A stretch of DNA of 64,000 nt, taken from the NCBI GenBank assembly GCA_964526435.1, contig CAZGIC010000002.1, positions 633-64,632 of the forward strand. Reading direction: 5' to 3'. This DNA comes from an uncultured Lachnospiraceae bacterium. GTDB lineage: Bacteria > Bacillota > Clostridia > Lachnospirales > CAG-274. The number at the start of each line of letters is the position of its first letter. The stretch's first letter is position 1. This document shows positions 15,054-33,251 of the stretch, piece by piece. A program made the translations under genes and the position numbers. Under the pieces are notes generated by a model. It had not been told where the DNA came from and did no database searches. It worked only from the letters and a program-made list of their open reading frames with translations.

Positions 15054-15323
15054 GTCCTGTGCTAGTCGGGGAGGTAGCGGTGCCCTGTAGTCTGCAATCC
15101 GCTTAGCAGAGATTATGTCCGCACTGAGGCTTTAGTTTGTGGGGTCAGCCTGCAGGCTTTTGATGTTGACGATTGAGTCTTGCACAACGGGAACCTGTGA
15201 ACCGTGTCAGATCCGGAAGGAAGCAGCACTAAGCAGTCATTTTCGTGTGTTGCAAGGTAGCTTGGTCTGAGTTGAAACCTGTTGTAACGCCCGGAGGCTA
15301 CTGTCGAAGTGGGATGCACAGGA
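15054..15323 (+). ncRNA. ffs: Signal recognition particle RNA, long Bacillus type (scRNA) with Alu domain
   Basis: GTGCTAGTCGGGGAGGTAGCGGTGCCCTGTA (Alu domain) and CAGATCCGGAAGGAAGCAGCA (domain IV) match the B. subtilis scRNA pattern. 5' TCCTGTGC pairs with 3' GCACAGGA, and a T8 run follows. It is a local GC-rich island. Confidence 0.85.
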
Positions 15324-15794: not shown

Positions 15795-16712
15795 TTAAAA
15801 ACATACCTTAGCCAGAGCATCTGCTATTACTTCTATGCTGTTTAAAGCCTCTTCATAAGTATTTGTCTGAGCCCCAAGTTCAATGAGCATACTTTTATCT
15901 TTCATATGCAGTGAATATCTGTAGGCATTTATGTATATTTTTCTTGTAATAGAAGAGTCAAATGATGTTACGGCACACTGCATTTGGAAACTTAAGGCAA
16001 GATTTGTCTTTAAATAAGGGTTTTCAAGTCCTTCTGTAGGCACAAGATTTCCATTGTCCCATTTTCTGCAGATTCCGTTAAAGAACATAATTTTAGCATA
16101 GGATTTGCCGTCTATTGTTGTAGCAAGGCGGAGATTTTCATTAACTCCGTCTCTGTGAAGGTCAATTACAATTTGAATTGAAGGATTTTCTTTAATTATC
16201 TGAGTTATAACAGGCTCAGCTCTCTCATAGGCACCATCTCTCTGGAGTTTTCCGTCAACAACGTCAAATTTGTCTGTAATATGCAGACATTCAATACCAT
16301 ATTTATCTTCAAGTATATTTTTAAGATATTCCCCTGCCCCTATTATGCCGTCACTGTCTCCTGTGCTGTCAGCGTATTTTTCACTTCCGTGGGTGTGGAA
16401 TATGAGAACTTTCGGTCCGTTTCCATCTGTATTTATATGTAGATTTGCCTGTGACATTTCTTCTATATTAAACAAGTCATCGGGCATACCTGTTTTCTTG
16501 TCTATTGAATAAAATGTCTTTTTTATTGTACTAATATCACTTAAGTCAATATTTTCTGTATAATTGTCTTTAACTTCATTTACCGTACCTATAAATACAT
16601 TCCCCAGTTCATAAACTGATACATTTCCCAGAGTAAGTGAATTATGGCTGAATAAAAATAAAATAACTATAAAAATTGTTGAAATTGTCAGAAAAAAGCC
16701 TGTCCTGCCCAT
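15795..16712 (-). CDS. spoIIP: Stage II sporulation protein P (SpoIIP-family amidase/peptidase)
   Basis: 305 aa with an N-terminal membrane anchor. It carries VLIFHTHGSEKY, VIDLHRDG and ELG motifs. Confidence 0.8.
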   Translation of the reverse strand: MGRTGFFLTISTIFIVILFLFSHNSLTLGNVSVYELGNVFIGTVNEVKDNYTENIDLSDISTIKKTFYSIDKKTGMPDDLFNIEEMSQANLHINTDGNGPKVLIFHTHGSEKYADSTGDSDGIIGAGEYLKNILEDKYGIECLHITDKFDVVDGKLQRDGAYERAEPVITQIIKENPSIQIVIDLHRDGVNENLRLATTIDGKSYAKIMFFNGICRKWDNGNLVPTEGLENPYLKTNLALSFQMQCAVTSFDSSITRKIYINAYRYSLHMKDKSMLIELGAQTNTYEEALNSIEVIADALAKVCF

Positions 16713-17107: not shown

Positions 17108-20100
17108 ATGAAGAAAGGCTTAAAAAGAATTTTAAGCACAGTATTGGCTTCTGCTATGCTCTTTTCAAGTATGACAGTTGTTAATACAAGTTCTGTATTT
17201 GCAGCAGGTACAATAACTGCAGAAAGTGTAGGCTGGCATGAAACTGCATATACAGAGTGGCTTCCTGTGGAAGGAGCGGATTCATACGAAGCTTATGTTA
17301 AAAAGACATCAGACAGTGAGTATACTAAACTTGATGATGAACTTGTGCGTGAGTATGATACTTTTGTTCGTGCTGATGCTCTTGGTCTTGCCAAAGGTAC
17401 ATACAATATGAAAATTGTGGCACTTAACAGCTCCGGTGTTGAAATTGCCTCATATGAGTCAGGTGCAATTACTGTTGACAATTATATAAGAGACGGTTTT
17501 GCCTTTTCCGATAACGGAAGCAGTTCCGGTGCTTATAATGACGACGGTACATTAAAGGATGAAGCGGTAGTAATTTATGTAACTGATGAAAATAAAGACA
17601 CTATTACAATGGATATAACTACAAGTAATAAAGGAGCTACAACAGCCTGTACCGGTCTTGGAGAAATTATAAAGGCTCTTGAAAAAGGTTATGAAACAAC
17701 TCCATTGGATTTCAGATTTATTGGTCAGGTTTCATGTCCTGATTCAACACAGAGTTTGAATCAGCTCGATGTTAAAAAGGCAGAATGTCCTATTACATTT
17801 GAAGGTGTGGGAAATGATGCTTTTGCTTTATTTGGATTTAACCTTGTGTCTGCAAATAATGTTGAAATCAGAAATTTAGGTTTCAAGGATATGACAACAA
17901 AGGATGAAGACGGTGTAACAATAAAGAGCCAGAGTAAAAGAATCTGGGTTCACAACTGTGACTTCTTCTACGGCGGTCAGGGTAGTGACAGTGATCAGGC
18001 AAAGGGTGACGGTTCAGTTGACTTAAAGAACACATCAACAAAGATCACTATTTCTGATAACCATTACTGGGATTCAGGAAAAGTTAATCTTTGCGGTCTT
18101 AGTGAAAGTACAGATTATGAAATTTCATATGCAAGAAACTGGTTTGACCATTCAGACTCAAGACATCCAAGAGTAAGAACAGGTTCAATTCATGTATATA
18201 ATAACTATTATGACGGTGTTTCTAAATATGGTGTAGGTGCTTGTACAGGTTCTTCAGTATTTGTAGAAGGCAACTACTTCAGAAACACATCTAAGCCTGT
18301 TATGAGTTCAAAACAGGGTACAGATGCTCAGGGCAGCGGTACTTTCTCAGGTGAAGCAGGCGGTATTATAAAGATGTATGACAACATAATGACAGGTACA
18401 TACACATTTATAGAAGCTAATAACGGTGACGGTACATATAATCAGGATTCAGACGGATACACTGTATCAAGCAGAGATGAAACAGTTCCATCAGGACTTA
18501 CAACTGTTAAGGGCGATACTTCATACAACAACTTTGATACAGAAAGAGATCTTGGTGTAGACGCATCAGGTGTTCTGGCTGCATCAGACGTTCCAGCATA
18601 TGTAACTGCAAATGCAGGACGTATTGACGGCGGTAACTTCATGTATATATTTGATGATGCAACTGAAGATTCAAATTACGATGTTATAGATGAAATGACA
18701 GATGCACTTGCCGATTATACATATGGTGCAAATACTGCTTATGTAAGCAGTATGAGTGCAACAGGTATAGACGACAATACTTTCTATACTGCAAGAGCAA
18801 CAGCTTACGAAAAGCATACTACATTACCTACAGAAACAGAAACAGATGGCAACAGTGCAACAGGCGGCGGTTCAGTTTCTGGCAGTGCTGACCTTGTATT
18901 AAATTACAGTGATGTAAGCACAGGTACATATTCATCAACTGTTACAGACTTGGGAACAGACGGTGCATTTGCAATTTATGCAACTTCTGGCAAGACTGTT
19001 ACAGTAAGCTCTTCTAAGGGTATCCAGCTTGGCGGTGCCGGAAGTGTTACTGATATGTACAGACTTATAAGTGTAACTGTAAGTGAAGCTGGTACAATTT
19101 ATGTAACATCTTCATCAACAGGCAGTGATACAAGAACTCTTAATATTGCAGATGAAGAAGGAAATATAATAGGTACAATCAGTACAGGTTCATCATCCGG
19201 TGTTGAACTTCCTTCAGCAGGAACATATTACATTTACTCAGCAGGTAGTGGTATAAACGTAACTAAGGTTTCAGTTTACTACAATGATGATTCAGATGAT
19301 GATGATACAGAAACAACTACTTCTTCAGGATCTTCATCAGGCAGCGGAGATGCCACAACTTCAACCACAACAGAAACAACAACTTCAACAACAACAGAAG
19401 CAACAACAGAAGCAACTACTTCTTCAGGTGCAGAATCATCTACAGAAGCAACAACAGAAACTACAACTGAAACAGTTACAGAAGCTCCTACTGAATCAAC
19501 TACATCAACAGTTGTTGTTCCTGATGACGGATATGCAGCAGAAGGTACATATATGTTAGGTCAGAATGCATCAGGCGGAGACTTTAACATTACAACCAAG
19601 ACTGCAACAGAAGGAAATGTATACTTCAAGATGAGTAATATTCAGTCTAATGCAGGAAGAATAAAGACCGAAGAAGATGGATATTACATTTCATTTGAAT
19701 TAGACAGAGATGCATATATCACTATTAATGTAACAAATCAGAGAGATCCGGCACAGATAAGAGAATATGGCGAAACAACTATAGCTGGCATTTATCCGGC
19801 AAATGCTGTAACAACTTGTCTGATTCCTGCAGGAAGTTATGTTATAGAGTATTATGAAGATCCTAATTTGGATGAGGACAGCAGCAGCCAGGGAGTTACA
19901 GAAATTGCATCTATAGTGATTTCATACTCAGTAAGTTCTTCAGATGATGATTCATCTTCAACAACTACAACAGAAACTACAACTGAAATAACTACAGAAA
20001 CTACAACTGAAACCACAACTTCAGGTGATACAGGTTCAGGCAGTGATTCAGAAGATTATAAGATAATAACTTCTGATACAGAATTATCAGCTGATAATTT

Positions 20101-20647
20101 TGATAATAATGAATACTTTGCTGCAAGTGATTCAACAAATGTATATAAGCATTCAACAAATGGTTGTATTCGTTTAAAGTCTGCAGGAACAATAACATTT
20201 AAAATTGCTGCAGGAGCTACAGTTAAAATTACAGCTTCAGGAGCAAATGCAGATGACTCAACAAGAACACTTACTTTGAGTAATGATTCCGGATATAGCA
20301 ATACAGTTACACTTAATAATAAGACAGATGGTGCTACAGAATCAACTTATGGTACAGATCTGGCAGCAGGTACATATACATTAAAGTCAAGCAATGATGT
20401 TGATATTACATCAATTAGTGTAACATTTACATCTGAATCTGAACCTACAGTTACAAAGGGTGATGCTAACGGTGACGGTTCTGTTACAATAGATGATGTT
20501 AAGCACATATTAAACTATGTAGTTGGTCTTATCAGCTCAGTTGTAAATGAAGAAGCAGCTGATGTAAATGAAGATGGTTCTGTAACTTCAAGAGATGCTT
20601 ACATTATTCAGTATTTCATTAAAAATGAAACATGGAAAACAGCTTAA
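17108..20647 (+). CDS. Secreted PL1 pectate lyase with three CBM-like modules and a C-terminal type I dockerin
   Basis: 1179 aa. AAGGAGG RBS, signal peptide and an Fn3-like module. PL1 core RIWVHNCDF..GDGSVDLK..ITISDNHYWDSGKVNLCG..NWFDHSDSRHPRVRTGSIHVYNNYY. Thr/Glu-rich linkers. Dockerin GDANGDGSVTIDDV..ADVNEDGSVTSRDA at nt ~20455-20625. Confidence 0.85.
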   Translation: MKKGLKRILSTVLASAMLFSSMTVVNTSSVFAAGTITAESVGWHETAYTEWLPVEGADSYEAYVKKTSDSEYTKLDDELVREYDTFVRADALGLAKGTYNMKIVALNSSGVEIASYESGAITVDNYIRDGFAFSDNGSSSGAYNDDGTLKDEAVVIYVTDENKDTITMDITTSNKGATTACTGLGEIIKALEKGYETTPLDFRFIGQVSCPDSTQSLNQLDVKKAECPITFEGVGNDAFALFGFNLVSANNVEIRNLGFKDMTTKDEDGVTIKSQSKRIWVHNCDFFYGGQGSDSDQAKGDGSVDLKNTSTKITISDNHYWDSGKVNLCGLSESTDYEISYARNWFDHSDSRHPRVRTGSIHVYNNYYDGVSKYGVGACTGSSVFVEGNYFRNTSKPVMSSKQGTDAQGSGTFSGEAGGIIKMYDNIMTGTYTFIEANNGDGTYNQDSDGYTVSSRDETVPSGLTTVKGDTSYNNFDTERDLGVDASGVLAASDVPAYVTANAGRIDGGNFMYIFDDATEDSNYDVIDEMTDALADYTYGANTAYVSSMSATGIDDNTFYTARATAYEKHTTLPTETETDGNSATGGGSVSGSADLVLNYSDVSTGTYSSTVTDLGTDGAFAIYATSGKTVTVSSSKGIQLGGAGSVTDMYRLISVTVSEAGTIYVTSSSTGSDTRTLNIADEEGNIIGTISTGSSSGVELPSAGTYYIYSAGSGINVTKVSVYYNDDSDDDDTETTTSSGSSSGSGDATTSTTTETTTSTTTEATTEATTSSGAESSTEATTETTTETVTEAPTESTTSTVVVPDDGYAAEGTYMLGQNASGGDFNITTKTATEGNVYFKMSNIQSNAGRIKTEEDGYYISFELDRDAYITINVTNQRDPAQIREYGETTIAGIYPANAVTTCLIPAGSYVIEYYEDPNLDEDSSSQGVTEIASIVISYSVSSSDDDSSSTTTTETTTEITTETTTETTTSGDTGSGSDSEDYKIITSDTELSADNFDNNEYFAASDSTNVYKHSTNGCIRLKSAGTITFKIAAGATVKITASGANADDSTRTLTLSNDSGYSNTVTLNNKTDGATESTYGTDLAAGTYTLKSSNDVDITSISVTFTSESEPTVTKGDANGDGSVTIDDVKHILNYVVGLISSVVNEEAADVNEDGSVTSRDAYIIQYFIKNETWKTA

Positions 20648-20680
20648 CTAAAATTTAGTTTAATTGGTTTTTATAAATAT

Positions 20681-20698
20681 CCCCTGCCCCGGCAGGGG
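20681..20698. other. GC-rich intercistronic hairpin without a T-run
   Basis: CCCCTGC-CCCG-GCAGGGG between the two PL1 genes. Confidence 0.45.
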
Positions 20699-20737
20699 AA
20701 TGGCTGAAATGTCAAATAATAAAGGAGGATATAAAAC

Positions 20738-23700
20738 ATGAAAAAGTGTTTTAAAAAAGCTCTAAGCGGTGTATTAGCCTCTGCTATGCTTTTTTCGTCA
20801 ATTGCTTTTGCACCTGTAAGTGCGTTTGCGGCAGGTTCAATTAGTGCTGGCGGATGGTTTGAGTCTATTTATGCCGAGATTTCCGGAATTAATGCAAGCG
20901 ATGTAACATCAGTATCTTGCACAGGTAATACAAATCTTGATCTTACTTCCTATGATATACAATATCTTGTAAGAGATAAAGATGGAAAAGTAAGAATTGA
21001 TGTTCCGGGACTTAATGCCGGAGATAATTACACAATAACCGTTACAACATCAGATGGTCAGACTTATAAACAAAGCGGAATTACTGTTTATGAATATGAC
21101 AGAGCTGGTTATGCTCATTACGATGCAGATAAGGATGGTGGTTCTTCAGCAGAAGGTATAGGTGGTTATAAAGATAACGGTGAATTAAAGGATAATGCAG
21201 TTGTTGTTTATGTAACTGAAGAAAATAAAAATACAGTTCAGATACCCGGTTTTGAAGGTGATGGGTACCCAATAGGTATCGGTAATATCCTTAATGAAAA
21301 ATCAACAGATGAGGGTGGTACAGGCGATGGTACAGGCAGAGTTTCAATGCTTGACTACCTTCGTCAAAATAACATTCCTCTTGTTGTAAGATTTGTAGGT
21401 ACAGTTACAGGCGGTACAGAGGATACAAATGATACTCCGCCTGATGAAAATATTTTAGGTCTTACAGAGTATGACGGTACAGGTAACGGCGGTACTGAAG
21501 GCGACAATGGTATGATGGCAAGAATGTATAAGGGCAGCAATATTACCATTGAAGGTATCGGTACTGATGCTGTTATTGACGGCTGGGGATTCCAGGTAAT
21601 AGCTCAGACTAATTATAACTGTGAAGGTTTTGAATTCAGAAATCTTCACTTTGTAGATACACCTGAAGATGCTATAGGTCTTGAAGGTACAAGTTCTTCA
21701 TCATCAAGTGCACCTACTACCGGAAAAGATTTTATTACATCACCTATTAAGTTTACATGGGTACACAACAATACCTTTGAAACGGGTTATTGTAGAAATC
21801 CTGCAGAGTCAGACAAGGCTGAAGGTGACGGTTCTGTAGACTTTAAGCGTGGATATGGTTATACAAATTCTTATAATCACTACAGAACAAACCATAAGAC
21901 AAACCTTATAGGTTCAAGTGATACAAGTATTCAGTATGATGTAACATTCCATCATAATTATTATGAGGGCGTATGGTCAAGACAGCCTCTTGCAAGACAG
22001 GCTAATATACATATTTACAACTCATACTTCTTAAATGGAGAAAATACTTCTTACATTATTTCTGCAAGAGCACATACTTATATCTTCTCAGAAGCTAATT
22101 TCTATGATGGATGCAAGAACCCTGTTAAAGAAACAAGAGGGGATTCAATTGTAAAGTCATTAAATGATAACTTTGCAGGCTGTACAGGAAATAATTTGGC
22201 AACTATTGTAAGCAGTAAGGAAGAAGATGTTTCTTCAGGCAGCTCTAACCCATATGCTAACTTTGAAAACAGCAGTGATATGTATGAATACACTGTAACA
22301 GATGCTGCACAGGCAAAGGCTGACTGTCTTGCAAAGGCGGGTATTATGAAGGAAGCTTCAGAAATCAATATGAATCCTGTACCAACATCTGTTATAGAGC
22401 AATATCCTGAAGAAATCCTTTCTCTTCCGTTTGAAGTAGACTTTACTGACAGTGATGTTGTTAATTCACTTACACAGAACGTGGTAAACGATTATTACGG
22501 AGCATTAATTACTCCAACATCTAAGCTTTCAACAAGTACAGGTATGAAGGCAAGAGATAATGCTATTGTATTTACTGTTAACACAGATGTTGATGTAACT
22601 GTAACAATTGGTTCAAAGAGCAGCTATGGTCTTGATATTATAAATGAAGTAGGTATTGCAGTATACCATGGTGACAGTGGTACAGTAACCACAACTCTTG
22701 AACCGGGTACATATATTATACGTTCAGGTAATGTTGAAAAGGATGTTTATATTGAATATGTTAAGATAGCTCAGCATGATCCTAACGGTACAACTGTAGA
22801 AGTATCTACACAGCCTACTACTGCTTCAACAGAAACCACAACAAATGGTGATGGAGATACAGAAACTACAACAAATGATTCATCAGGTTCAGACTCAGGT
22901 TCAGGAACAGTTACTGACGAAGGTTACATGATGCATGAAGATGGTTATGATAATGTTTTAGAGGTTGATGTGCCGGCATCTAATCCGTCTATGTATGAAT
23001 TCGTAGGTTCATATAAGAATGTATCAGCTACATATGGTAATATTACTTATGACAGAGGATATAAGATAGAGTCCAAGACATCTCTTTATATTGACGCACC
23101 TTGTGACGGTACTTTACAGCTTGTAACAGGAAATGCCTCAACCCTTAAGTTGGATGGTGTTGAATTCAATTTAACAAGTGGAGACGGTTTAACATTAACT
23201 GAAATATCTCTTACAGCAGGTGAGCATGAAATTACAAGAGGAGATAAGGAATGTTGGATTTACCTTTTAAATTTCATTCCTGATGATTCAGGAGATGATG
23301 ATACAGATGATTCATCTTCAACTACAACAACAGAAACAACTACAGAAACAACTACTGAAACAACAACTGAAACTCCTACAGAAGGAACAACAACAGCTCC
23401 TGTAGAAGGTGTTAATGTTTCAGTTGGCGATGTAAGTGTTAAGGTTGGCGAAACTGTTACAGTTCCTGTATATGTAACAGGTATGGATACAATTGGAAAC
23501 TTTGCTTTTGAATTAGCTTATGATGATACTAAGTTAACATTTGTAGAAGTTACTAACGGCAATATGATCAGTGGTGACACATTAACTTATAATGAGTCAG
23601 ATGGAGTAATTTCTGTAGCAGGTACAAATACAGATGCTCTTGGAAACGGCGATGTATTATTCTATGTAACATTCAAGGGACTTGCTGATGGTTCATCAAC

Positions 23701-25099
23701 TATTACATTAACAGTTAATGAATTAGGTACAAATGATTCAACAGAAGTTGATTATACTGTAGAAAACGGTTCTGTAACTGTTGCTACAGACAGCTCATCT
23801 ACTACACCTTCAACAGGTGTTAAGGGCGATGTAAACAAGGACGGTGTAGCTGATGCTGAAGATGCAGCTATTGTACTTAAGATAGCTTCAGGTATTATTA
23901 CTGAAGCTGAAGCAGCAGCAAAGGATTATGACCTTGATGCAGCTGACTATGATGAAGATGGAGAAATTACCGTTCTTGATGCAGTAGCTATTTTAAGAGG
24001 TTCACAGGATTCAGGAGAAACTACTGATGTAAGTTACTATGACTTTGAGGATAGTCCTTCTGTAACTCTTAATGGAACAAGCGGTATTACTTATACTGTA
24101 AGTACTTCAAATGATTCAACATCTGATGGAAATACTGCAACAGCTTCAATTGTGGATTATAATGAAAGCAAAGCTCTTTACCTTAATGATCAATCAGAAA
24201 CAGATACTGTTAAAGTAACTCTTCCTTTAACTGAAAAGAGTTCAGGTACAGTTACTTATACTATCGACATTACTCCTACAACAAATTCAGGAAGCTGGAC
24301 ATTAGTACAGCTGAACGGAGTAAAAGCTGATGGTACAACTGGTGAGGTTCTTGGTATAAGAACAGATAGTGACAAAGGATATGGCTTAAGAGTAAATGGT
24401 GGAAGCTCAGTTACTTCATCAGATGTATCAATAGCTGCAGATACAACTGCAACAATTACTATAGTTGTTGACTTTGACAATGACACGGCAACATTAAGTG
24501 TTAACGAAAGTGCTCCTGTTACAGTAACAGGTGTAGATGCTCAGTCAATTACATCAATGTCATTCCAGACAGCTACAGGTGCCAGAAGTCTTTATGTTGA
24601 TAATGCAGGCATTATTGCTGAAAGTACTTCAGAGGTAACTACTACTGAAACAACAACTACTACTACAGAAGAAGATACTGAAACAACTACTGATTCAGCT
24701 GTAGAACAAGTTAGTTCATGGACAGCTGGAGATAGCGATACTAGTTTTGTAAATGTAGGTTCAGCTACAGTTAGCAATAATTCTCGTAAAGTTTTCCAGA
24801 CAGAAAATGGTGGTATATTTGAAAAAGTTGTTACTATAAGTAAGGGTGGTAGTTTTACAATTACACCTGGAAAGGCAGGCACATTAAAGGTTTATGTTGC
24901 AACTAATGATTCATCAGCTAAGGGTACTTTGGAGCCAACATGGACAGATGAAACAGTTGCCGGCACTTACAGCTTACCTGGACGAGAGGATACAGATGCA
25001 GAGCCTTTTACAATAACAGTAGATGAAGCACATGCAAATGATACGCTTACATTTAATACAAGTCGTGAAATTCTGTTATTTAAGGCTGAAATTGAATAA
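20738..25099 (+). CDS. Secreted PL1 pectate lyase carrying an internal cohesin and an internal dockerin plus CBM-like/ConA-like modules
   Basis: 1453 aa. The N-terminus is paralogous to that of 17108-20647. PL1 core FTWVHNNTF..GDGSVDFK..NLIGSSD..HHNYYEGVWSRQPLARQANIHIYNSYF. Cohesin-like VSVGDVSVKVGETVTVPVYVTGMDTIGNFAFELAYDDTKLTFVEV at nt ~23411-23787. Dockerin GDVNKDGVADAEDA..DYDEDGEITVLDA at nt ~23815-24003. Confidence 0.85.
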   Translation: MKKCFKKALSGVLASAMLFSSIAFAPVSAFAAGSISAGGWFESIYAEISGINASDVTSVSCTGNTNLDLTSYDIQYLVRDKDGKVRIDVPGLNAGDNYTITVTTSDGQTYKQSGITVYEYDRAGYAHYDADKDGGSSAEGIGGYKDNGELKDNAVVVYVTEENKNTVQIPGFEGDGYPIGIGNILNEKSTDEGGTGDGTGRVSMLDYLRQNNIPLVVRFVGTVTGGTEDTNDTPPDENILGLTEYDGTGNGGTEGDNGMMARMYKGSNITIEGIGTDAVIDGWGFQVIAQTNYNCEGFEFRNLHFVDTPEDAIGLEGTSSSSSSAPTTGKDFITSPIKFTWVHNNTFETGYCRNPAESDKAEGDGSVDFKRGYGYTNSYNHYRTNHKTNLIGSSDTSIQYDVTFHHNYYEGVWSRQPLARQANIHIYNSYFLNGENTSYIISARAHTYIFSEANFYDGCKNPVKETRGDSIVKSLNDNFAGCTGNNLATIVSSKEEDVSSGSSNPYANFENSSDMYEYTVTDAAQAKADCLAKAGIMKEASEINMNPVPTSVIEQYPEEILSLPFEVDFTDSDVVNSLTQNVVNDYYGALITPTSKLSTSTGMKARDNAIVFTVNTDVDVTVTIGSKSSYGLDIINEVGIAVYHGDSGTVTTTLEPGTYIIRSGNVEKDVYIEYVKIAQHDPNGTTVEVSTQPTTASTETTTNGDGDTETTTNDSSGSDSGSGTVTDEGYMMHEDGYDNVLEVDVPASNPSMYEFVGSYKNVSATYGNITYDRGYKIESKTSLYIDAPCDGTLQLVTGNASTLKLDGVEFNLTSGDGLTLTEISLTAGEHEITRGDKECWIYLLNFIPDDSGDDDTDDSSSTTTTETTTETTTETTTETPTEGTTTAPVEGVNVSVGDVSVKVGETVTVPVYVTGMDTIGNFAFELAYDDTKLTFVEVTNGNMISGDTLTYNESDGVISVAGTNTDALGNGDVLFYVTFKGLADGSSTITLTVNELGTNDSTEVDYTVENGSVTVATDSSSTTPSTGVKGDVNKDGVADAEDAAIVLKIASGIITEAEAAAKDYDLDAADYDEDGEITVLDAVAILRGSQDSGETTDVSYYDFEDSPSVTLNGTSGITYTVSTSNDSTSDGNTATASIVDYNESKALYLNDQSETDTVKVTLPLTEKSSGTVTYTIDITPTTNSGSWTLVQLNGVKADGTTGEVLGIRTDSDKGYGLRVNGGSSVTSSDVSIAADTTATITIVVDFDNDTATLSVNESAPVTVTGVDAQSITSMSFQTATGARSLYVDNAGIIAESTSEVTTTETTTTTTEEDTETTTDSAVEQVSSWTAGDSDTSFVNVGSATVSNNSRKVFQTENGGIFEKVVTISKGGSFTITPGKAGTLKVYVATNDSSAKGTLEPTWTDETVAGTYSLPGREDTDAEPFTITVDEAHANDTLTFNTSREILLFKAEIE

Positions 25100-25112
25100 T
25101 TAATAAGGAAAA

Positions 25113-25146
25113 GTGTAAAATGTAGTAATCTTACTACATTTTACAC
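25113..25146 (+). other. Perfect 16-bp hairpin downstream of the 1453-aa gene (terminator or attenuator-like, no T-run)
   Basis: GTGTAAAATGTAGTAA-TC-TTACTACATTTTACAC. Confidence 0.5.
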
Positions 25147-25218
25147 CCTTGCAATTATTATGATTTTATTATATAATTAATTTATATAGTAAAATAAATT
25201 ACGAAGGGGGATTATAAA

Positions 25219-25974
25219 ATGAAGAAGTTATTCGGCACACTTGTTGCTGTAGGTGCTATGGCTCTTATGGCTGTGGGTGTACAAGCCGCTACATATTCAG
25301 CAACTGCAGGGGCAACTCCGGGAGAGGATGGTTATGCGGTTGTTGATGTACTTGTAACTCCTGGTGAGGATGGAACTGAATCAGTAAATGGCTATGTTAT
25401 GACTTTTACATATGATTCAAGCAAGGTTACACCGGCTGTTGTCGGAACTGATGCAATAGATGAAGATTGCTATGCCACTGTCGGAGAAGAATTTACAAAT
25501 GGTGTTTTAGTAGCAGGTGATGCTACTACTGATGAAAGTAGTACTACCAAAACATTAGCTGTTGCATGGGCAGGAGCTGATGCAGTTACAGTAAGCGAAG
25601 AAACTGCAATGGCATCTGTTGAATTTAAAGTTGTTGATGGTGCTACAGGTACAGCTGATATTCAGGTGGCTGTTGTAGCATTGACTAACGGTGGAGAGAA
25701 AATTGCTGATTCAAGTTCATATAGTGTAGCTTCTGGTACAATTACTCTTGATACTGAGGAAATTTTATATGGTGATATCAATGGGGATAAAGCTATAGAT
25801 TCATATGATGCAAGTTTGGCTTTACGTCACTACTCAACATCATTCTTGACTGATGATGAAATAGAAATTGGTGATGTTAATGATGATGGGGTTGTGGATT
25901 CATATGATGCTAGTTTAATTTTACAGCGTTACTCTGATGAATCTGTCATATTCCCAGTAGAGCAAAATAAGTAA
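25219..25974 (+). CDS. Small secreted cohesin-dockerin adaptor (scaffoldin-like)
   Basis: 251 aa with a signal peptide. The cohesin-like body carries GYVMTFTYDSSKVTP..LAVAWAG..ASVEFKVV. The C-terminal dockerin is GDINGDKAIDSYDASLALRH..GDVNDDGVVDSYDASLILQRY (nt ~25765-25940). Confidence 0.7.
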   Translation: MKKLFGTLVAVGAMALMAVGVQAATYSATAGATPGEDGYAVVDVLVTPGEDGTESVNGYVMTFTYDSSKVTPAVVGTDAIDEDCYATVGEEFTNGVLVAGDATTDESSTTKTLAVAWAGADAVTVSEETAMASVEFKVVDGATGTADIQVAVVALTNGGEKIADSSSYSVASGTITLDTEEILYGDINGDKAIDSYDASLALRHYSTSFLTDDEIEIGDVNDDGVVDSYDASLILQRYSDESVIFPVEQNK

Positions 25975-26000
25975 ATATTATAGAGAAAGAGGGTTTAAGA

Positions 26001-27014
26001 ATGAAGCTAAAAAGTATTTTGGCATTGACTGTGGTTATGGGTGTCACTTTATTTGCAACATCCGTATATGCAGCAACTACAAGTTATTATGTAGGAACAC
26101 CTATTGATTTAAAGACAAATCAACCGGTTGAAGAATATGAAGTTGGTCAAATTGTTGCTCTTCCTGTAGATTTTGAGTCTGAGTCAGGATATATAACAGC
26201 AACAGGTATTTCTTTAAATTTTGATACTAATGTTTTAGAGTATGGTGCTGATTTAAGTGCAGTTACTAGTGATACAACTGTAACGGCAAATTTATTGAGT
26301 TTAGGTGTTCCAAAATATAATAGTAATTCATCTAAAGTTATGCTTGTAAATGGATTGTATACTAGTAATATTTTAACAGGTAATACAGAGATAGGAATGA
26401 TGAATGTACCTGATGAAGCTGACAGTGGAAAAGTAAAGATTCCTTGGGCAAATGCTACAGAAGTTGCAACAAGTGATGCCCCTGAACTTTATATTATATT
26501 TACTGTAGTTGGTACAATAAGTTCAGATTCATTAAACGTAGAAATTGTTTCTGTAAATAATGAAGAGTGTAATATTGGTAATAATGCTGGAAATGTCCTA
26601 AATGTTAGCGGTGTAGTTGATAAGGCTAACGCATGTGACGGTGCTTTCCAGGTTGTATTTGATACTGATGCATTAGCAGAAGTGACAAGTGATGATCTTG
26701 ATGGTGCTACTGGTTACTATGTTCAGGGCGTTACAGCTACAATTAATGGAAAAGGTTATCCACTTGAAGCTTGTGTTCAAGATGGTTCAACAGTATATAA
26801 GTTCCCTGTAAGACTTACATCTGAGGCTGAAGAAGCTTCTGTTAATGTAACTATTACAGCAACAGTTACAGATTATGCAGATGGTAGTGGCACTGAAAGA
26901 ACTGTTGAATGGGGTACTGTTAATGTTGATATGAGTGGTACAGTTACTTCATATGCATCAGCAGATGCAAGTGTTACAGGTACTGTTGTTACAACAGATA
27001 CTGTTGCTGAATGA
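26001..27014 (+). CDS. Secreted protein with an N-terminal cohesin-like module and an unknown C-terminal module
   Basis: 337 aa with a signal peptide. It carries VGQIVALPVDFESESGYITATGISLNFDTNVLEYG. I see no dockerin, SLH or LPXTG motif. Confidence 0.55.
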   Translation: MKLKSILALTVVMGVTLFATSVYAATTSYYVGTPIDLKTNQPVEEYEVGQIVALPVDFESESGYITATGISLNFDTNVLEYGADLSAVTSDTTVTANLLSLGVPKYNSNSSKVMLVNGLYTSNILTGNTEIGMMNVPDEADSGKVKIPWANATEVATSDAPELYIIFTVVGTISSDSLNVEIVSVNNEECNIGNNAGNVLNVSGVVDKANACDGAFQVVFDTDALAEVTSDDLDGATGYYVQGVTATINGKGYPLEACVQDGSTVYKFPVRLTSEAEEASVNVTITATVTDYADGSGTERTVEWGTVNVDMSGTVTSYASADASVTGTVVTTDTVAE

Positions 27015-27038
27015 TAATTATTAAGGAGGAGATTTAAT

Positions 27039-27203
27039 ATGAAAAAGTATAATACCCCAGAAGTTAAAATCGCTGTCCTTAATAATGAGGACATACTTAT
27101 GATAAGTGCTGTTGGCGTTAACTTAAACAAATTTGATAGTAGCAGTAAGTATACAAGTATTGAAATCGAAACTAAAAATAAATATTCCGGTGTTAATTTT
27201 TAA
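27039..27203 (+). CDS. Unannotated 54-aa ORF that closes the cohesin-dockerin operon
   Basis: AAGGAGGA at 27023-27030 lies 8 nt before the ATG. Product: MKKYNTPEVKIAVLNNEDILMISAVGVNLNKFDSSSKYTSIEIETKNKYSGVNF. It falls below the 60-aa cutoff of the ORF track, and a strong terminator follows. Confidence 0.45.
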   Translation: MKKYNTPEVKIAVLNNEDILMISAVGVNLNKFDSSSKYTSIEIETKNKYSGVNF

Positions 27204-27274
27204 TTTATTTTTTTGTTTTGGTTCTTTGTCAACTGATGTGGTTATACTCGATTGACATTAAAAGCTAAAATTTT

Positions 27275-27311
27275 GAGTGCATATTCTTTAATCAGAATAT
27301 GCACTCTTTTT
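27275..27311 (+). terminator. Rho-independent terminator of the cohesin-dockerin operon
   Basis: GAGTGCATATTCT-TTAATC-AGAATATGCACTC followed by TTTTT. Confidence 0.7.
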
Positions 27312-27402
27312 ATCTAAAGAAATAAGATGGCACATAATTAAAATTCTATTTCTGAAGTGATAAAAGCTCCTATATAGTAGACTGGCTAAGGATTATTTAT
27401 TA

Positions 27403-27999
27403 TTACTCCACTTCTATTGTTACAGTATCTTCAGGTACCTCATCAGGTGATATTCCTTCAATTGTAACAAAGGGAACGTTCATTTCACTTGTTATAGTTA
27501 TGTTACCTATAGTTTCTGTTTTTGTAGTGACTTCTGTATCTTCTGTAGTTGATTCTGTGGAAGTTTCTGAAAGGGTTTCGGAATTATCTTCACTGTTTAT
27601 ATATGCTGTTTTGCTTTCTGCATCCCAGTCAACTTCTGCATTTACTGCTTCCCCTACTGCTCTCAATGGTAACATAAATCTGCTGTCTATTATCTGCTGA
27701 GGTACATCGGGAGTTATTGTTGTGTCATTAACAGTAAATGTGCTTTCACCGTTTGTAAGAGTGATTACTGTGTCATTATTTGTAAGTGTCGCCGTCTTTG
27801 TATCATTATCCCACTCCACGTCATAGCCCATATATTCAAATACTCCTCTTACAGGCACGAGAGTACGTCCGTCAACTATTATACCGCTGTCTGCTACCAG
27901 GTTACCGTTTGAATATACTGTTACACTGTCCCCTTCTGCTCCCATAGCAGGTACAGCAAACATAATTAAAGTTACAGCTGATATTATAAATCTTTTCAT
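27403..27999 (-). CDS. Secreted copper-amine-oxidase N-terminal ('stalk') domain protein
   Basis: 198 aa with a signal peptide. Two stalk-domain signatures are followed by a Thr/Glu-rich tail. Confidence 0.75.
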   Translation of the reverse strand: MKRFIISAVTLIMFAVPAMGAEGDSVTVYSNGNLVADSGIIVDGRTLVPVRGVFEYMGYDVEWDNDTKTATLTNNDTVITLTNGESTFTVNDTTITPDVPQQIIDSRFMLPLRAVGEAVNAEVDWDAESKTAYINSEDNSETLSETSTESTTEDTEVTTKTETIGNITITSEMNVPFVTIEGISPDEVPEDTVTIEVE

Positions 28000-28760: not shown

Positions 28761-30629
28761 ATGGATTACAAACAATCAGCTAAAAAGGTTATTGAAGGCT
28801 TAGGCGGAAAAGATAATATTGTTTCTGCTGCCCACTGTGCTACAAGATTGAGGCTTGTTATCGGTGACAATGACAAATGCAACAAAGAGTTTATTGAAAA
28901 TATCGACGGCGTCAAGGGTGTTTTCTTTGCATCAGGTCAGCTCCAGGTTATATTCGGCACAGGGGTTGTAAACAAGGTGTATGAGGAATTTATAAAAGAA
29001 GCCGGCATAAGCGAAGCAACCAAAGAAGAAGTAAAGCAGGCAGCCAATGCAAAAACAAATGTGTTTAAGAGAATTATAAAAGCTTTAGGTGATGTATTTG
29101 TACCTATTATACCTGCAATAGTGGCAAGCGGTCTTTTAATGGGAATTTTGGAGGGTTTGTGCAATGCCTTTCCCGAAATGGCAAATTCAGGCACATATCA
29201 GATAATTCATCTGTTTTCAAATGCGGCTTTTACATTTCTTCCAATTTTAATTGGTATGAGTGCAGCTCAGGTATTTGGCGGAAACAGATTTCTGGGTGCA
29301 GTTATCGGTATGATTATGATACATACGGATCTTATGAATGCGTGGAGTGTTGCAGGTGCGGATCCTTCAAGTATTCCTCAGGCATCAGTCTGGTTTGGTA
29401 TATATTCAATCAAACTGGTAGGTTATCAGGGGCATGTTATTCCTGTTGTTATAGCAGTTTGGTTTATGTCTAATCTTGAAAAAAGACTGCATAAAATTGT
29501 TCCTGAAATGATTGATCTGTTTGTTACGCCTCTTGTAACTGTTCTTGTTACAGGTTATTTTACACTTACAATTTTTGGTCCTGTATTTTCACTTATTGAA
29601 AATTATGTTTTAAGCGGTGTACAGTATCTTATATCAATACCTTTAGGTATAGGCTCATTTATTGTGGGTGCTGTGTATGCTCCTACAGTTGTGGCAGGTG
29701 TGCATCATATGTACAATGCAATAGAAGCAGGTATGATAAGTGCTACAGGTGCAAATATATGGATGCCAATTGCAACTTCAGCAAATGTGGCACAAGGTGC
29801 CGCAGCTCTTGCCCTTGCCTTAAAGACTAGAAACAGAAAAGTTAAGTCAATGGCTCTGCCTGCATCTCTTTCAGCATTTTTAGGTATTACGGAACCGGCT
29901 ATATTTGGTGTTAATCTTAGATTTTTCAAACCTTTTATTGCAGGCTGTATAGGCGGTGCCTTTGGTGCCCTTGCTGCATCTGTATTAAATGTAAGTGCTA
30001 CTGCCTATGGTATTACAGGTGTATTCGGATTGCTTATTACAACTCATTGCATAGTTCAGTACATTATAGTTATGGCTGTTGCCTTTGCCGTTGCTTTTGT
30101 GGTATCATGGATATTGTTTAAAGATGAAAAAGAAGAAACACCGGCTCAGACAGAAACAGTAACTGAGTTTACTCCTGAACATGGTACGGTTTATTCTCCT
30201 TTAAAAGGTGAAGCTATATCTTTAAAGGACGTTAATGATGAAACATTTGCAGGTGAAGTCCTTGGACAGGGAATAGCTGTTATACCTGAAAATGGTGTTG
30301 TTGTTTCTCCTGTAAAGGGAAAGGTTGAAACTCTTTTTGATACCAGGCATGCAATAGGCATAACATCAGATGACGGTACGGAACTTCTTATACACATTGG
30401 TATAAATACAGTTGAACTGGGCGGAAAATATTATACTGCCTTTGTAAGTGAAGGCGATGAAATCAGTGTGGGACAAAAACTTATTGAATTTGATATGGAT
30501 GAAATCAAAAAAGCAGGTTATGATATAACCACTCCCGTAATTGTGACAAACTCATTTGATTATGAAAGTGTTACACCTGAAAAAACGGGAAAGGTTGACT
30601 TTGGAGAAAAAATATTGACTGTAAGGTGA
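28761..30629 (+). CDS. scrA: PTS sucrose-type transporter, fused EIIB-EIIC-EIIA
   Basis: 622 aa. EIIB NIVSAAHCATRLRLV, ~10 TM segments for EIIC, and a C-terminal glucose-family EIIA (GIAVIP..DTRHAIGI..LIHIGINTV). Confidence 0.85.
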   Translation: MDYKQSAKKVIEGLGGKDNIVSAAHCATRLRLVIGDNDKCNKEFIENIDGVKGVFFASGQLQVIFGTGVVNKVYEEFIKEAGISEATKEEVKQAANAKTNVFKRIIKALGDVFVPIIPAIVASGLLMGILEGLCNAFPEMANSGTYQIIHLFSNAAFTFLPILIGMSAAQVFGGNRFLGAVIGMIMIHTDLMNAWSVAGADPSSIPQASVWFGIYSIKLVGYQGHVIPVVIAVWFMSNLEKRLHKIVPEMIDLFVTPLVTVLVTGYFTLTIFGPVFSLIENYVLSGVQYLISIPLGIGSFIVGAVYAPTVVAGVHHMYNAIEAGMISATGANIWMPIATSANVAQGAAALALALKTRNRKVKSMALPASLSAFLGITEPAIFGVNLRFFKPFIAGCIGGAFGALAASVLNVSATAYGITGVFGLLITTHCIVQYIIVMAVAFAVAFVVSWILFKDEKEETPAQTETVTEFTPEHGTVYSPLKGEAISLKDVNDETFAGEVLGQGIAVIPENGVVVSPVKGKVETLFDTRHAIGITSDDGTELLIHIGINTVELGGKYYTAFVSEGDEISVGQKLIEFDMDEIKKAGYDITTPVIVTNSFDYESVTPEKTGKVDFGEKILTVR

Positions 30630-30633
30630 TAAT

Positions 30634-32025
30634 ATGAATAAAGAAACTATATTAAACTTAGTTAAGGAAGCTGAGAAGAATATAGATAAAGTAAATAAGG
30701 ACAGTTACAGACAGTGTTTTCATTTAATGCCTCCCGTAGGCTGGCTTAATGACCCTAATGGATTATGTCAGCTTAAAGGAGAATACAATGTGTTTTTTCA
30801 GTATTCTCCTTTAAGCCCTGAGGGCAGCAGAGGCAGGTTCTGGGGATGGTATAAAAGCCGTGACCTTATCAGCTGGAGTTATGAGGGTGTGCCTTTTGTA
30901 ACAGATACAGAGTGGGACAGAGATGGTGTGTATTCTGGTTCAGCTCTTGCAGAAGATAATAAAATCAATATTTTTTATACAGGCAATGTTAAGCACAAGG
31001 GCGAATATGACTACATAAACGCCGGAAGAGAGTCAAATACTATATATGCATCTCCTTATACAGGAGAAAAACACATTATATTTACAAACAAGGATTATCC
31101 TGAAAACTATACACAGCATATAAGAGATCCAAAAGTCTGGAAAGAAAATAATAAGTATTATATGGTTTTAGGCGGAAGAAAAAAAGGTGATAAGGGTGCA
31201 GTGATTTTATATGTTTCTGACAATATAAAAAAGGGCTGGCATTTTCTTAAAGAAATAACTACAGAAAATAAATTCGGTTACATGTGGGAATGCCCTGACA
31301 TATTTAAGCTTGGTAATCAGTATTTTCTTTCTGTTTCACCACAGGGACTGGAACAGGAAGGTTATAAATATCAGAATATATATCAGAGCGGATATTTTTC
31401 AGTTGACGGTGACTACAAATCAGACTGTGATTTAATAAACTTTACGGAATGGGATATGGGTTTTGATTTTTATGCCCCTCAGACTTTTGCTGATGAACAG
31501 GGCAGAAGAATATTAATTGGCTGGGTGGGTATGCCTGATGCAGAATATACAAACCCTACCCTTGAAAAGGGCTGGCAGAATTGTCTTACAGTACCGAGAG
31601 TCCTTGAATACAAAAGGGGCAGAATTTATCAGACTCCCGTACCTGAAATTAACAAACTCAGAAAAGATGAGGTTACTCTTAATTCAGGAGATAAAGTATC
31701 GGCAAAAATATGTGATATAATTGCTGAAAATATTAATTCCAATAATTTTGAGGCAAATATTAAAGATGTCCTTCGTGTTGAATACAGCAATAATTTATTT
31801 AAAATCATTCTTAATCAATACGGCAGAAATGAAAGAGGTCTTATTATTTCTGCTCTTGACAAAGTAAGAATACTTGTTGACAGTTCAGTTGCAGAAATAT
31901 ATATAAATGAAGGAGAATATGTTTTTACAACAATGTATTACCCGGAAAATGATTTCATAAGTATCAGCTGTCCAGACAGCAAAATAAAACTTTGGTATAT
32001 GGATAAAATGGAGGTCGGATATTAA
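30634..32025 (+). CDS. scrB: Sucrose-6-phosphate hydrolase (GH32)
   Basis: Motifs HLMPPVGWLNDPNGL, FYTGN, RDPKVW and WECPD. Confidence 0.9.
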   Translation: MNKETILNLVKEAEKNIDKVNKDSYRQCFHLMPPVGWLNDPNGLCQLKGEYNVFFQYSPLSPEGSRGRFWGWYKSRDLISWSYEGVPFVTDTEWDRDGVYSGSALAEDNKINIFYTGNVKHKGEYDYINAGRESNTIYASPYTGEKHIIFTNKDYPENYTQHIRDPKVWKENNKYYMVLGGRKKGDKGAVILYVSDNIKKGWHFLKEITTENKFGYMWECPDIFKLGNQYFLSVSPQGLEQEGYKYQNIYQSGYFSVDGDYKSDCDLINFTEWDMGFDFYAPQTFADEQGRRILIGWVGMPDAEYTNPTLEKGWQNCLTVPRVLEYKRGRIYQTPVPEINKLRKDEVTLNSGDKVSAKICDIIAENINSNNFEANIKDVLRVEYSNNLFKIILNQYGRNERGLIISALDKVRILVDSSVAEIYINEGEYVFTTMYYPENDFISISCPDSKIKLWYMDKMEVGY

Positions 32026-32984
32026 TGAAAAAGCTTATGGCAATAGGAGAAGCTCTTATAGATTTTATACCGGGCGAAAAATCAAAACCTATTAAAAATG
32101 TATCTGCTTTTTATCCCAATGTGGGAGGTGCTCCTGCTAATGTATGCGGTGCATTTACAAAGCTTGGGGGAAAATCTGAAATGATCACTCAGCTTGGAAA
32201 TGATCCCTTTGGAGATAAAATTATAGATGAATTTGAAAAATACGGTATAGGTCACAAATATGTGTTAAGAACAGACAAGGCTAATACCTCTCTTGCTTTT
32301 GTTGCTCTTAATGAAAAGGGAAACAGAGAATTTTCATTTTACAGAAATCCAGGTGCGGATATGCTTCTTTCACCTGAAAGCATTAAAGAAGAATGGTTTG
32401 ATGATGGCTATTGTCTGCATTTCTGCTCCGTATCTCTGGGAGATTTCCCTATGAAAGAAGCACACAAAAAGGCTGTAGAAATTGCTCTTGAAAAAAATAT
32501 GATTGTAAGCTTCGATCCCAATATAAGACTTCCTTTATGGAAAGACAAAAACAAGCTGAGAGAAACAGTACTTGAATTTATGCCTATGGCTCATATTGTT
32601 AAAATATCAGATGAAGAAATTGAGTTTATTACAGGCAAAAAAAATGTATCAGAAGCAAAGGACATATTGTTCAGAGGAAATACAAAAATAGTGCTGTTTA
32701 CAAAAGGTGCCCAGGGTGCCGAATTTTACAGAATAAATGATAAGGGATATTCTGCCTGTGAAGATGTTGTGGCTGTTGATACTACAGGGGCAGGTGATGC
32801 TTTTATTGGCTCATTTTTATATAAATTATACGAAAGCGGCATAATGGCAGAAAATCTTAATGAAATTCCCTATGATTTTTTGTTAAATGCTCTTGATTTT
32901 TCTAACAGATTTTGCACAATAAGTATAACAAGGAAAGGAGCAATTGCTTCTTATCCGGATAATTTTAAGGAGGAATTGAAATGA
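32025..32984 (+). CDS. scrK: Fructokinase (PfkB family)
   Basis: 319 aa with GGAPANV and DTTGAGDAF. Its start overlaps the scrB stop (TAATG). Confidence 0.85.
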   Translation: MKKLMAIGEALIDFIPGEKSKPIKNVSAFYPNVGGAPANVCGAFTKLGGKSEMITQLGNDPFGDKIIDEFEKYGIGHKYVLRTDKANTSLAFVALNEKGNREFSFYRNPGADMLLSPESIKEEWFDDGYCLHFCSVSLGDFPMKEAHKKAVEIALEKNMIVSFDPNIRLPLWKDKNKLRETVLEFMPMAHIVKISDEEIEFITGKKNVSEAKDILFRGNTKIVLFTKGAQGAEFYRINDKGYSACEDVVAVDTTGAGDAFIGSFLYKLYESGIMAENLNEIPYDFLLNALDFSNRFCTISITRKGAIASYPDNFKEELK

Positions 32985-33238
32985 AAGTTATTGATTATGT
33001 AGTTACAGATCCCGTAGGTATTCACGCAAGACCTGCAGGTCAGCTTGCAAAAATTGCAAAAGAGGTTACAAGCAAGGTGACAATTGAATTTGGAGATAAA
33101 AGTGCGGAAGCAGGCAGACTTTTGGCTGTAATGGGACTTGGTATAAAATCCGGGGACAAAATGACGGTTAAAATTGAAGGTGCAGACGAAGAAGAAGCTG
33201 CTGTAAAGCTGGAAGAGTTCTTAAAGAACAATTTATAA
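32981..33238 (+). CDS. ptsH: Phosphocarrier protein HPr, with Arg at position 46
   Basis: 85 aa. His15 lies in GIHARPA. Codon 46 (33116-33118, AGA) encodes Arg where Ser46 is expected. There is an ATGA overlap with scrK. Confidence 0.9.
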   Translation: MKVIDYVVTDPVGIHARPAGQLAKIAKEVTSKVTIEFGDKSAEAGRLLAVMGLGIKSGDKMTVKIEGADEEEAAVKLEEFLKNNL

Positions 33239-33251
33239 GGGGGTATCCATA

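Follow-up and report, generated by a model that had tools for sequence, protein, structure and literature searches.

A conserved operon of an uncultured Lachnospiraceae bacterium predicted to encode a pectin-targeting cohesin-dockerin complex without a multi-cohesin scaffoldin

Five consecutive genes (g1 to g5) on a 64,000-nucleotide stretch of DNA from an uncultured Lachnospiraceae bacterium (contig CAZGIC010000002.1 of GenBank assembly GCA_964526435.1, positions 633 to 64,632 of the forward strand; hereafter the window) encode two PL1 pectate lyases, two smaller cohesin-bearing proteins and a short peptide. We propose that these genes probably specify a secreted, pectin-targeting multi-enzyme complex that is assembled through cohesin-dockerin pairs, lacks a multi-cohesin scaffoldin and forms an ordered chain, g1→g2→g3→g4. 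In such a chain the dockerin of the lyase g1 (DocA) would plug into the cohesin CohB of the second lyase g2 (PL1-CBM77-CohB-DocB), and the dockerin of g2 (DocB) would plug into the cohesin CohC of the adaptor g3. The symmetric dockerin of g3 (DocC) would in turn plug into the divergent cohesin CohD of g4, which with its immunoglobulin-like (Ig-like) domain would form the chain end. The product would be a 1:1:1:1 head-to-tail assembly acting on homogalacturonan and bearing two PL1 modules, one CBM77 and several further β-sandwich modules; the chains of relatives would have three lyases or an added PL9. Through its C-terminal domain g4 could attach the chain to the cell envelope or some other partner, and g5 would be a conserved peptide co-encoded alongside the chain.

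The window proteins are singletons at 90% identity, and the whole cluster recurs in at least 13 other assemblies at 25-65% protein identity. The same gene order is present in the related loci that we designate L001, L003, L005, L007 and L009-L019. Carriers include the Clostridia metagenome-assembled genome (MAG) GCA_030524425.1, Candidatus Gallispira edinburgensis and a second Gallispira species, the human-gut MAGs MGYG-HGUT-01183 and MGYG-HGUT-04429, several rabbit MAGs and unbinned metagenome contigs; the related gut MAGs come from human, chicken and rabbit hosts. Five-gene loci hold three dockerins and three cohesins. Six-gene loci (L003, L011, L012, L013 and L018) have one added PL1-CBM77-cohesin-dockerin enzyme and hold four of each, such that cohesin and dockerin numbers are equal, 3:3 or 4:4, in all of the at least 13 related loci. 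Neither in the window nor in the related loci does any protein carry more than one cohesin or more than one dockerin, and no multi-cohesin scaffoldin is found there. The first protein of each locus has a dockerin and no cohesin, the last a cohesin and no dockerin. Parity, together with these two kinds of end, matches what would be predicted for a head-to-tail chain.

DocA, DocB and DocC are the only three dockerins in the 64-kb window. Beyond those of g2, g3 and g4 the window yielded no further cohesin, by a scan that is weak (a hidden Markov model (HMM) of the g3 type recovers neither the g2 nor the g4 cohesin). The initial annotation of this DNA had described the complex as self-contained, a description that gains weight indirectly from the count of dockerins in the window, from parity across the related loci and from the covariation of each dockerin with the cohesin of the next gene.

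Covariation was assessed by a mirror-tree comparison, in which the distance matrices of the domains were compared over 12 loci (Pearson r), with a partial Mantel test to control for PL1 divergence. Each dockerin correlates best with the cohesin encoded by the next gene. DocA gave r = 0.74 with CohB, against 0.14 with CohC and 0.13 with CohD; DocB gave 0.71 with CohC, 0.61 with CohB and 0.36 with CohD; DocC gave 0.71 with CohD, 0.33 with CohC, which is on the same polypeptide, and 0.18 with CohB. The partial Mantel p value was 0.0005 for each of the pairs DocA-CohB, DocB-CohC and DocC-CohD. When one, two or three loci were left out, DocA kept its predicted partner as the best one in 100% of subsets, DocC in at least 99.5% and DocB in 75-100%. 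DocC and CohD are the fastest-evolving modules (38% and 25% mean identity, respectively). Since DocC tracks CohD far more closely than it tracks its own CohC, linkage or shared phylogeny alone is not an easy explanation.

Subtypes of the modules follow a related pattern. On g1 of L001 and L010 the dockerin is of the DAYLIGKIIL type, which is also found on the first enzyme of L012, and the g2 cohesins of L001 and L010 cluster with the cohesin of the L012 middle enzyme (53-54% identity), not with that of L012 g2. In the window, L005, L007 and L009 the DAYIIQKY dockerin type is paired with the other cohesin cluster. The DocC cluster formed by L005, L007 and L009 comprises exactly the loci with a short variant of g4. 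The extra enzyme of some relatives, and the presence of its cohesin type in g2 of L001 and L010, imply that the chain has become longer or shorter in the past by gain, loss or fusion of whole cohesin-dockerin units.

The calls made in the initial annotation for all five genes, the weak cohesin calls on g3 and g4 included, survived testing. Pfam, which had been put forward as the check on them, bore out the three dockerins, the g2 cohesin, PL1 and CBM77 and missed the cohesins of g3 and g4. All coordinates given here for the operon refer to the plus strand. g1 (17108-20647) encodes a secreted PL1 pectate lyase of 1179 residues, which also has three β-rich modules without assignment and carries DocA at its C-terminus. 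Its catalytic β-helix (17621-18382, residues 172-425) matches Pfam PF00544 at residues 233-391 (E 1e-24) and the pectate lyases 7xks (E 4e-28) and PelC, 1air (E 2e-15), in the PDB. g2 (20738-25099) encodes a secreted enzyme of 1453 residues with the order PL1-CBM77-cohesin-dockerin, followed by approximately 370 unassigned residues. Its β-helix (21521-22357, residues 262-540) matches PF00544 at residues 266-455 (E 1.3e-13) and pectate lyase II, 2qx3 (E 1e-17). The catalytic arginine of PL1 is carried by an RxPxxR motif. Read from the translations, this motif is kept in both modules, as RHPRVR in g1 and RQPLAR in g2. g1 and g2 would cleave polygalacturonate by β-elimination.

The CBM77 of g2 (22979-23272, residues 748-845) matches PF18283 at residues 748-842 (E 2.2e-10; 41.3 bits against a cutoff of 25) and the solved pectin-binding module CBM77-RFPL, 5fu5 (PDB search, E 3.4e-5). 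CohB (23411-23782, residues 892-1015; PF00963, E 8.5e-16) is kept in all g2-type orthologues. The C-terminal part of g2 (24005-25096, residues 1090-1453) consists of unassigned β-rich modules; at this place, after the dockerin, the g2 of relatives often has an extra CBM77 and a PL9 β-helix. PL1 was the sole catalytic family detected by Pfam and PDB sequence searches, in agreement with the earlier claim that every catalytic module is a pectate lyase, and GH5, GH9 or GH48 cellulases were not found as main cargo. That the complex is dedicated to pectin, as had also been suggested, is strengthened by the match of CBM77 to 5fu5, by the PL9 added to g2 of relatives and by the link of related genera to pectin degradation: UMGS1441 (= Ca. 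Gallispira) and CAG-41 have been mapped to this activity (bioRxiv 10.1101/2023.07.04.547750).

An ancillary module of g1 (18890-19288, residues 595-727) matched no Pfam family and matched a 178-residue chain of the PDB entry 8wc1, ‘Pectate lyase family 9’ (E 2e-7). It is probably an undescribed, pectin-associated carbohydrate-binding module. The same residues weakly resemble (E 2e-4) residues 315-407 of the secreted protein encoded ahead of the peptide gene in a further locus, L020. When nine isolated unassigned segments of g1, g2 and g4 were compared with Pfam, only sub-threshold noise was returned.

The three dockerins are of type I, each with two calcium-binding F-hand repeats. PF00404 scores above its gathering threshold in g1, g2 and g3, the six calcium loops all have the canonical form, and sequence searches of the PDB with the dockerins of the locus matched known dockerins. 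DocA (20456-20611, residues 1117-1168; PF00404, E 1.6e-10) has asymmetric repeats, with the calcium loops DANGDGSVTIDD and DVNEDGSVTSRD and a repeat-to-repeat identity of 0.41. The internal dockerin DocB (23822-23989, residues 1029-1084; Pfam E 3.4e-5, above the gathering score) belongs to a class that is highly conserved across loci. DocC (25768-25932, residues 184-238; Pfam match at 184-234, E 5e-9) has near-symmetric repeats, DINGDKAIDSYDASL and DVNDDGVVDSYDASL, whose identity is 0.59 in the window. The family mean is 0.68, against means of 0.33-0.35 for the enzyme dockerins DocA and DocB. Near-identical dockerin repeats are a signature of a dual binding mode.

g3 (25219-25974, 251 residues) would be a monovalent adaptor comprising a signal peptide, CohC and DocC. 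The g3 cohesin, the g4 protein and the g5 peptide gave nothing in Pfam, NCBIfam or single-sequence PDB searches; it took homologue profiles and structure prediction to resolve the g3 and g4 cohesins. CohC (25288-25749, residues 24-177) is identified by the Pfam matches of its homologues and by an AlphaFold2 (AF2) model searched with Foldseek. PF00963 is reached by 25 of 44 g3 homologues (40-60% identity; best E 1e-10). The AF2 model of g3 has a mean predicted local distance difference test (pLDDT) score of 83.7 and its top 32 Foldseek matches in the PDB are all cohesins, led by 6kgf (E 4e-8) and including Ruminococcus flavefaciens ScaG (4n2o, 4wkz).

g4 (26001-27014, 337 residues) comprises a signal peptide, the divergent cohesin CohD (26079-26609, residues 27-203) and an Ig-like C-terminal domain. 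In its AF2 model (pLDDT 71.6) an N-terminal cohesin fold is followed by an Ig-like β-sandwich, and Foldseek matches are to the cohesin structures 2w1n (E 6e-8) and 2jh2 (target template-modelling score 0.72-0.80) and to type II cohesins. One of 11 g4 homologues reaches PF00963 (4e-7), and the family profile matches Clostridium thermocellum cohesins weakly (E 0.04). In an exhaustive search of 1.84 billion representatives, the distant matches of the profile (E 1.7e-7 to 8e-4) include proteins matched in multiple stretches, and all eight of those checked carry three to six cohesins by Pfam. An HMM built from the g4 cohesin (g4N) also matches g3-type cohesins (5e-6).

The C-terminal β-sandwich of g4 (26610-26975, residues 204-325), delimited by alignment, the AF2 model and its own HMM (g4C), matched no Pfam family. 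An invariant cysteine, Cys212, within the motif KANACDGAFQVV, is located at the junction of the two domains. Across loci, the g4 position is occupied by three variant proteins which have the cohesin in common and differ in the C-terminal domain, and in one homologue, P0230, the g4 cohesin and C-terminal domain are fused to the C-terminus of a PL1 enzyme. None of the five proteins has S-layer homology (SLH) repeats, a C-terminal sortase motif or a transmembrane segment. The initial annotation had concluded that no anchor is encoded, which is correct for these known motifs and overlooks the conserved C-terminal domain of g4. This domain, a candidate tether or cap, is most likely where the chain attaches to the cell envelope or some other partner. 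A second candidate for surface display or attachment might be the secreted Cu_amine_oxidN1 protein encoded on the minus strand at 27403-27999 (198 residues, with a Ser/Thr-rich linker; Pfam E 4.9e-42), on grounds of adjacency only: it adjoins the operon in every related locus shown, and in L019 lies on the same strand directly after the peptide gene.

The five open reading frames (ORFs) lie exactly where the initial annotation had placed them, on the same strand, and each is preceded by a strong Shine-Dalgarno ribosome-binding site. g1 to g4 have signal-peptide-like N-termini; none was seen on g5 (27039-27203). An intrinsic terminator follows g5 at 27275-27313, with a hairpin at 27275-27306 (13-bp stem) and then TTTTTAT (-19.1 kcal/mol, z = -6.2). 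The earlier statement that the genes end at one strong terminator holds as far as this U-tract hairpin is concerned, and must be qualified by equally stable hairpins without a U-tract which follow g1 (GC-rich, 20680-20699 in the g1/g2 intergenic region; -18.7 kcal/mol, z = -3.0) and g2 (long and AT-rich, at approximately 25104-25151; -21.5 kcal/mol, z = -6.7). Directly 3' of the latter is a promoter-like site, TTGCAA-17-TATAAT, at 25149-25177. One operon with one terminator is therefore no more than plausible, and separate expression of g1, g2 and g3-g5 is possible. The intergenic hairpins and the promoter-like site suggest attenuation, processing or separate transcription of g3-g5.

Several points weigh against an ordered chain of this kind and bear on the alternatives to it. 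The strong hairpins after g1 and g2 cast doubt on equal amounts of the subunits, approximately 1,000 β-rich residues of g1 and g2 have no assigned family or function, and the model of g4 is of moderate confidence only. The census moreover covers 64 kb of the genome, and further cohesins, dockerins or a true scaffoldin are possible elsewhere. This limited view leaves room for a reading that we regard as unlikely, in which the operon is the pectinolytic branch of a larger cellulosome-like system whose scaffoldin or anchor, encoded elsewhere, binds the dockerins (at least DocC) and in which g4 binds the dockerins of other enzymes. Precedents exist: in the C. thermocellum cellulosome, PL1 and PL9 enzymes with a dockerin are ordinary accessory subunits (PMC4319962), CBM77 stems from an R. 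flavefaciens enzyme (5fu5, matched by g2), and monovalent cohesin-dockerin adaptors occur in ruminococcal cellulosomes, from which ScaG resembles the g3 model. Against it stand parity in every locus, the best covariation of each dockerin with the cohesin of the next gene and DocC subtypes that follow the type of g4 variant (L005, L007 and L009 with the short g4); the multi-cohesin proteins nearest to g4 are also remote (E ≥ 1e-7 among the 1.84 billion representatives).

The covariation comes from 12 partly related loci, in which shared ancestry and physical linkage can inflate r. DocC and CohD are only about 100 nt apart, though CohC is equally close to DocC. The values for DocB are less separated than those of the other dockerins: DocB-CohB (r = 0.61, or 0.51 without L009) is close to DocB-CohC (0.63-0.71), CohB is the best partner of DocB in up to 25% of leave-three-out subsets, and self-association of g2 is thus conceivable. 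There is precedent in Amy4 of Ruminococcus bromii, which autoaggregates via its own cohesin-dockerin pair (PMC4611034). If g2 and g3 likewise bound their own cohesins intermolecularly, aggregates of indefinite length would form and not a defined four-member chain, but we judge this improbable. With all 12 loci, as with any one of them left out, DocB-CohC exceeds DocB-CohB; the correlation of DocC with its own CohC is less than half of that with CohD; and self-binding would leave the conserved dockerin of g1 and cohesin of g4 without partners. It is more improbable still, to the point where we give it very little credence, that the modules do not pair at all and serve in calcium-dependent stabilisation or in carbohydrate or cell-wall binding, the cluster then being a group of secreted pectinases and accessory proteins that act independently. 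Non-cellulosomal cohesin and dockerin modules without a known partner are indeed numerous, and the cohesins of g3 and g4 fall below Pfam thresholds. Against this, the calcium loops are canonical and conserved, as are the dockerin classes, module numbers are matched in every locus, covariation between proteins exceeds that within them, and for an adaptor built from a single cohesin and a single dockerin no role but bridging is obvious.

The ordered chain, on the evidence of sequence and predicted structure, would make this locus a pectin counterpart of cellulosomes and amylosomes, and its closest known system appears to be the R. bromii amylosome (Ze et al. 2015, PMC4611034). Both belong to non-cellulolytic gut Firmicutes with cohesin-dockerin enzymes directed at a single polysaccharide; Amy4 carries both a cohesin and a dockerin, as do g2 and the middle enzymes of six-gene loci, and the cohesin carriers are small single-cohesin proteins. 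The two differ in substrate (starch and GH13 there, pectin with PL1 and CBM77 here), in the grouping of all partners within a single compact and conserved operon where cohesins and dockerins are equal in number, and in the covariation here, which points to an ordered chain in contrast to the self-aggregation of Amy4. The dockerin proteins of R. bromii number 26, and Sca2 of this species is similar to ScaE, a cell wall-anchoring protein (PMC4611034); the present locus has no known anchor motif.

Other systems share single features with the locus. The R. flavefaciens cellulosome has monovalent cohesin-dockerin adaptors, dockerin-bearing pectate lyases, the CBM77 family, which was defined there (5fu5), and the autonomous cohesin ScaG that is matched by the g3 model. 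It differs in having the multi-cohesin proteins ScaA and ScaB, hundreds of dockerin proteins and sortase anchoring via ScaE, whereas the present locus has no multi-cohesin protein, no sortase signal and only pectate lyases as catalytic modules. In the glycosidase and toxin complexes of Clostridium perfringens (GH84C, GH33; 2w1n, 2jh2, 2o4e, 2vo8), enzyme-borne cohesins pair directly without a scaffoldin. These cohesins provide the best structural matches of g4, at 10-15% sequence identity, and the cohesin-FN3 tandem of 2w1n mirrors the order of the cohesin and Ig-like domains in g4; the targets are, however, host glycans, the genes are dispersed, and there is no dedicated adaptor or terminal cohesin protein. 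The cellulosomal pectate lyases of C. thermocellum (PMC4319962) and Clostridium cellulovorans are likewise PL1 and PL9 modules fused to type I dockerins, but they are minor accessory subunits on a cellulose-directed scaffoldin, whereas here pectate lyases are the sole enzymes and one carries a cohesin. With neither a multi-cohesin scaffoldin nor cellulases nor a known anchor, the present locus is not a classical cellulosome. Monoglobus pectinilyticus, a cultured pectin specialist among gut Clostridia, reportedly (work of Kim et al. in 2019) has large multimodular extracellular PL1 and PL9 enzymes, which are said to be displayed through SLH domains. The present locus differs in having no SLH repeat and, in its place, predicted cohesin-dockerin pairing.

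In a full-text literature search, neither a cohesin-dockerin complex dedicated to pectin nor this operon was found described, and no paper used the term ‘pectinosome’. Two recent cellulosome surveys describe no pectin-specific cohesin-dockerin system and do not name these taxa, and a search for Monoglobus with cohesin and dockerin turned up only a review citing cellulosome papers. A pectin-only version, if confirmed, would represent a third substrate class for cohesin-dockerin complexes, after cellulose (textbook knowledge) and starch (2015), and would explain how an abundant uncultured gut group, already statistically linked to pectin fermentation, attacks pectin. Each subunit has at most one cohesin and at most one dockerin, the genes are in the proposed order of assembly, and the three specificities are apparently orthogonal. 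If so, this would be the simplest natural design for an ordered enzyme chain and would offer three new orthogonal cohesin-dockerin pairs for designer assemblies. With four proteins in the system, the whole interaction matrix amounts to nine pairwise assays. Two unannotated families also come to light, one represented by the g4 C-terminal domain and the other by the g5 peptide. A more far-reaching interpretation, which we offer tentatively and consider less likely than not, is that the operon is the signature scaffoldin-less pectin apparatus of an uncultured gut clade related to Gallispira/UMGS1441, with three orthogonal, co-evolving pairs in gene order that fix the order of the subunits, a terminal-cohesin tether of a new type and an exported double-glycine-leader peptide that serves as signal or cofactor.

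The peptide of the window (54 residues) is conserved and has a leader that resembles the double-glycine type. A homologous ORF (41-62 codons) follows g4 in every related locus examined, profile search gives an unannotated family of 82 members (listed as P0090-P0170), and the 54-residue form of the window was found again in an independent sequencing run; from this recurrence in sequence, we conclude that g5 is a real gene. In the consensus for double-glycine leaders, Gly-Gly (or GA/GS) occupies positions -2 and -1, position -8 is acidic and positions -4, -7, -12 and -15 are hydrophobic. In 71 of the 82 members the first 25 residues have I/V at -15, L/F at -12, D at -8, V/I/F at -7 and V/A/L at -4, with S-G-[GS] at -3 to -1, and thus fit this consensus. 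After the leader comes a variable stretch of approximately 18 residues which ends in Phe. Three observations argue against a leader of this type: where cleavage would be expected, the window copy reads S-A-V-G instead of S-G-G; no ABC transporter with a C39 peptidase is present among the annotated ORFs of at least 120 residues in the window or among the genes listed for related loci; and members of the family also occur after unrelated secreted proteins in L020 and L021. An exported peptide is the best lead for the role of g5, albeit a speculative and rather doubtful one.

Three other roles for g5 were considered and rejected. A leader of the lasso type, or of a ribosomally synthesised and post-translationally modified peptide dependent on a recognition element (suggested by a YxxPxL-like motif), would call for maturation enzymes, none of which is nearby in any locus; a membrane anchor would call for a hydrophobic segment, which is absent. 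Partnership with the C-terminal domain of g4 was rejected since in L020 (peptide gene at 4104-4238) and L021 (peptide gene at 9001-9129), away from any pectate lyase operon, the peptide comes after unrelated secreted proteins, CBM-like or Big_2, which the g4C HMM does not match. Compared with its homologues, the window copy also contains 11 inserted residues, which may be an internal duplication.

In most of the loci that include the left flank of the operon, this flank carries SpoIIP, and the outer flanks vary between loci. In the window the left neighbour is the SpoIIP sporulation gene at 15795-16712 on the minus strand, and a bacterial large signal recognition particle RNA is found just upstream of it, at 15057-15321 on the plus strand (Rfam RF01854, 180 bits). 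Further upstream, at 7008-10961 on the plus strand, is a gene for a secreted protein of 1317 residues with four Big_3 repeats, a C-terminal right-handed β-helix (Pfam Beta_helix) and no dockerin; it may be another, free polysaccharide-active enzyme. No uronate or 2-keto-3-deoxygluconate (KDG) catabolic genes are found among the ORFs annotated in the window. Directly downstream of the operon, at 28761-34871 on the plus strand, are genes for a sucrose-type phosphotransferase system (PTS) EIIBCA, a GH32 hydrolase and a PfkB kinase, and then PTS enzyme I.

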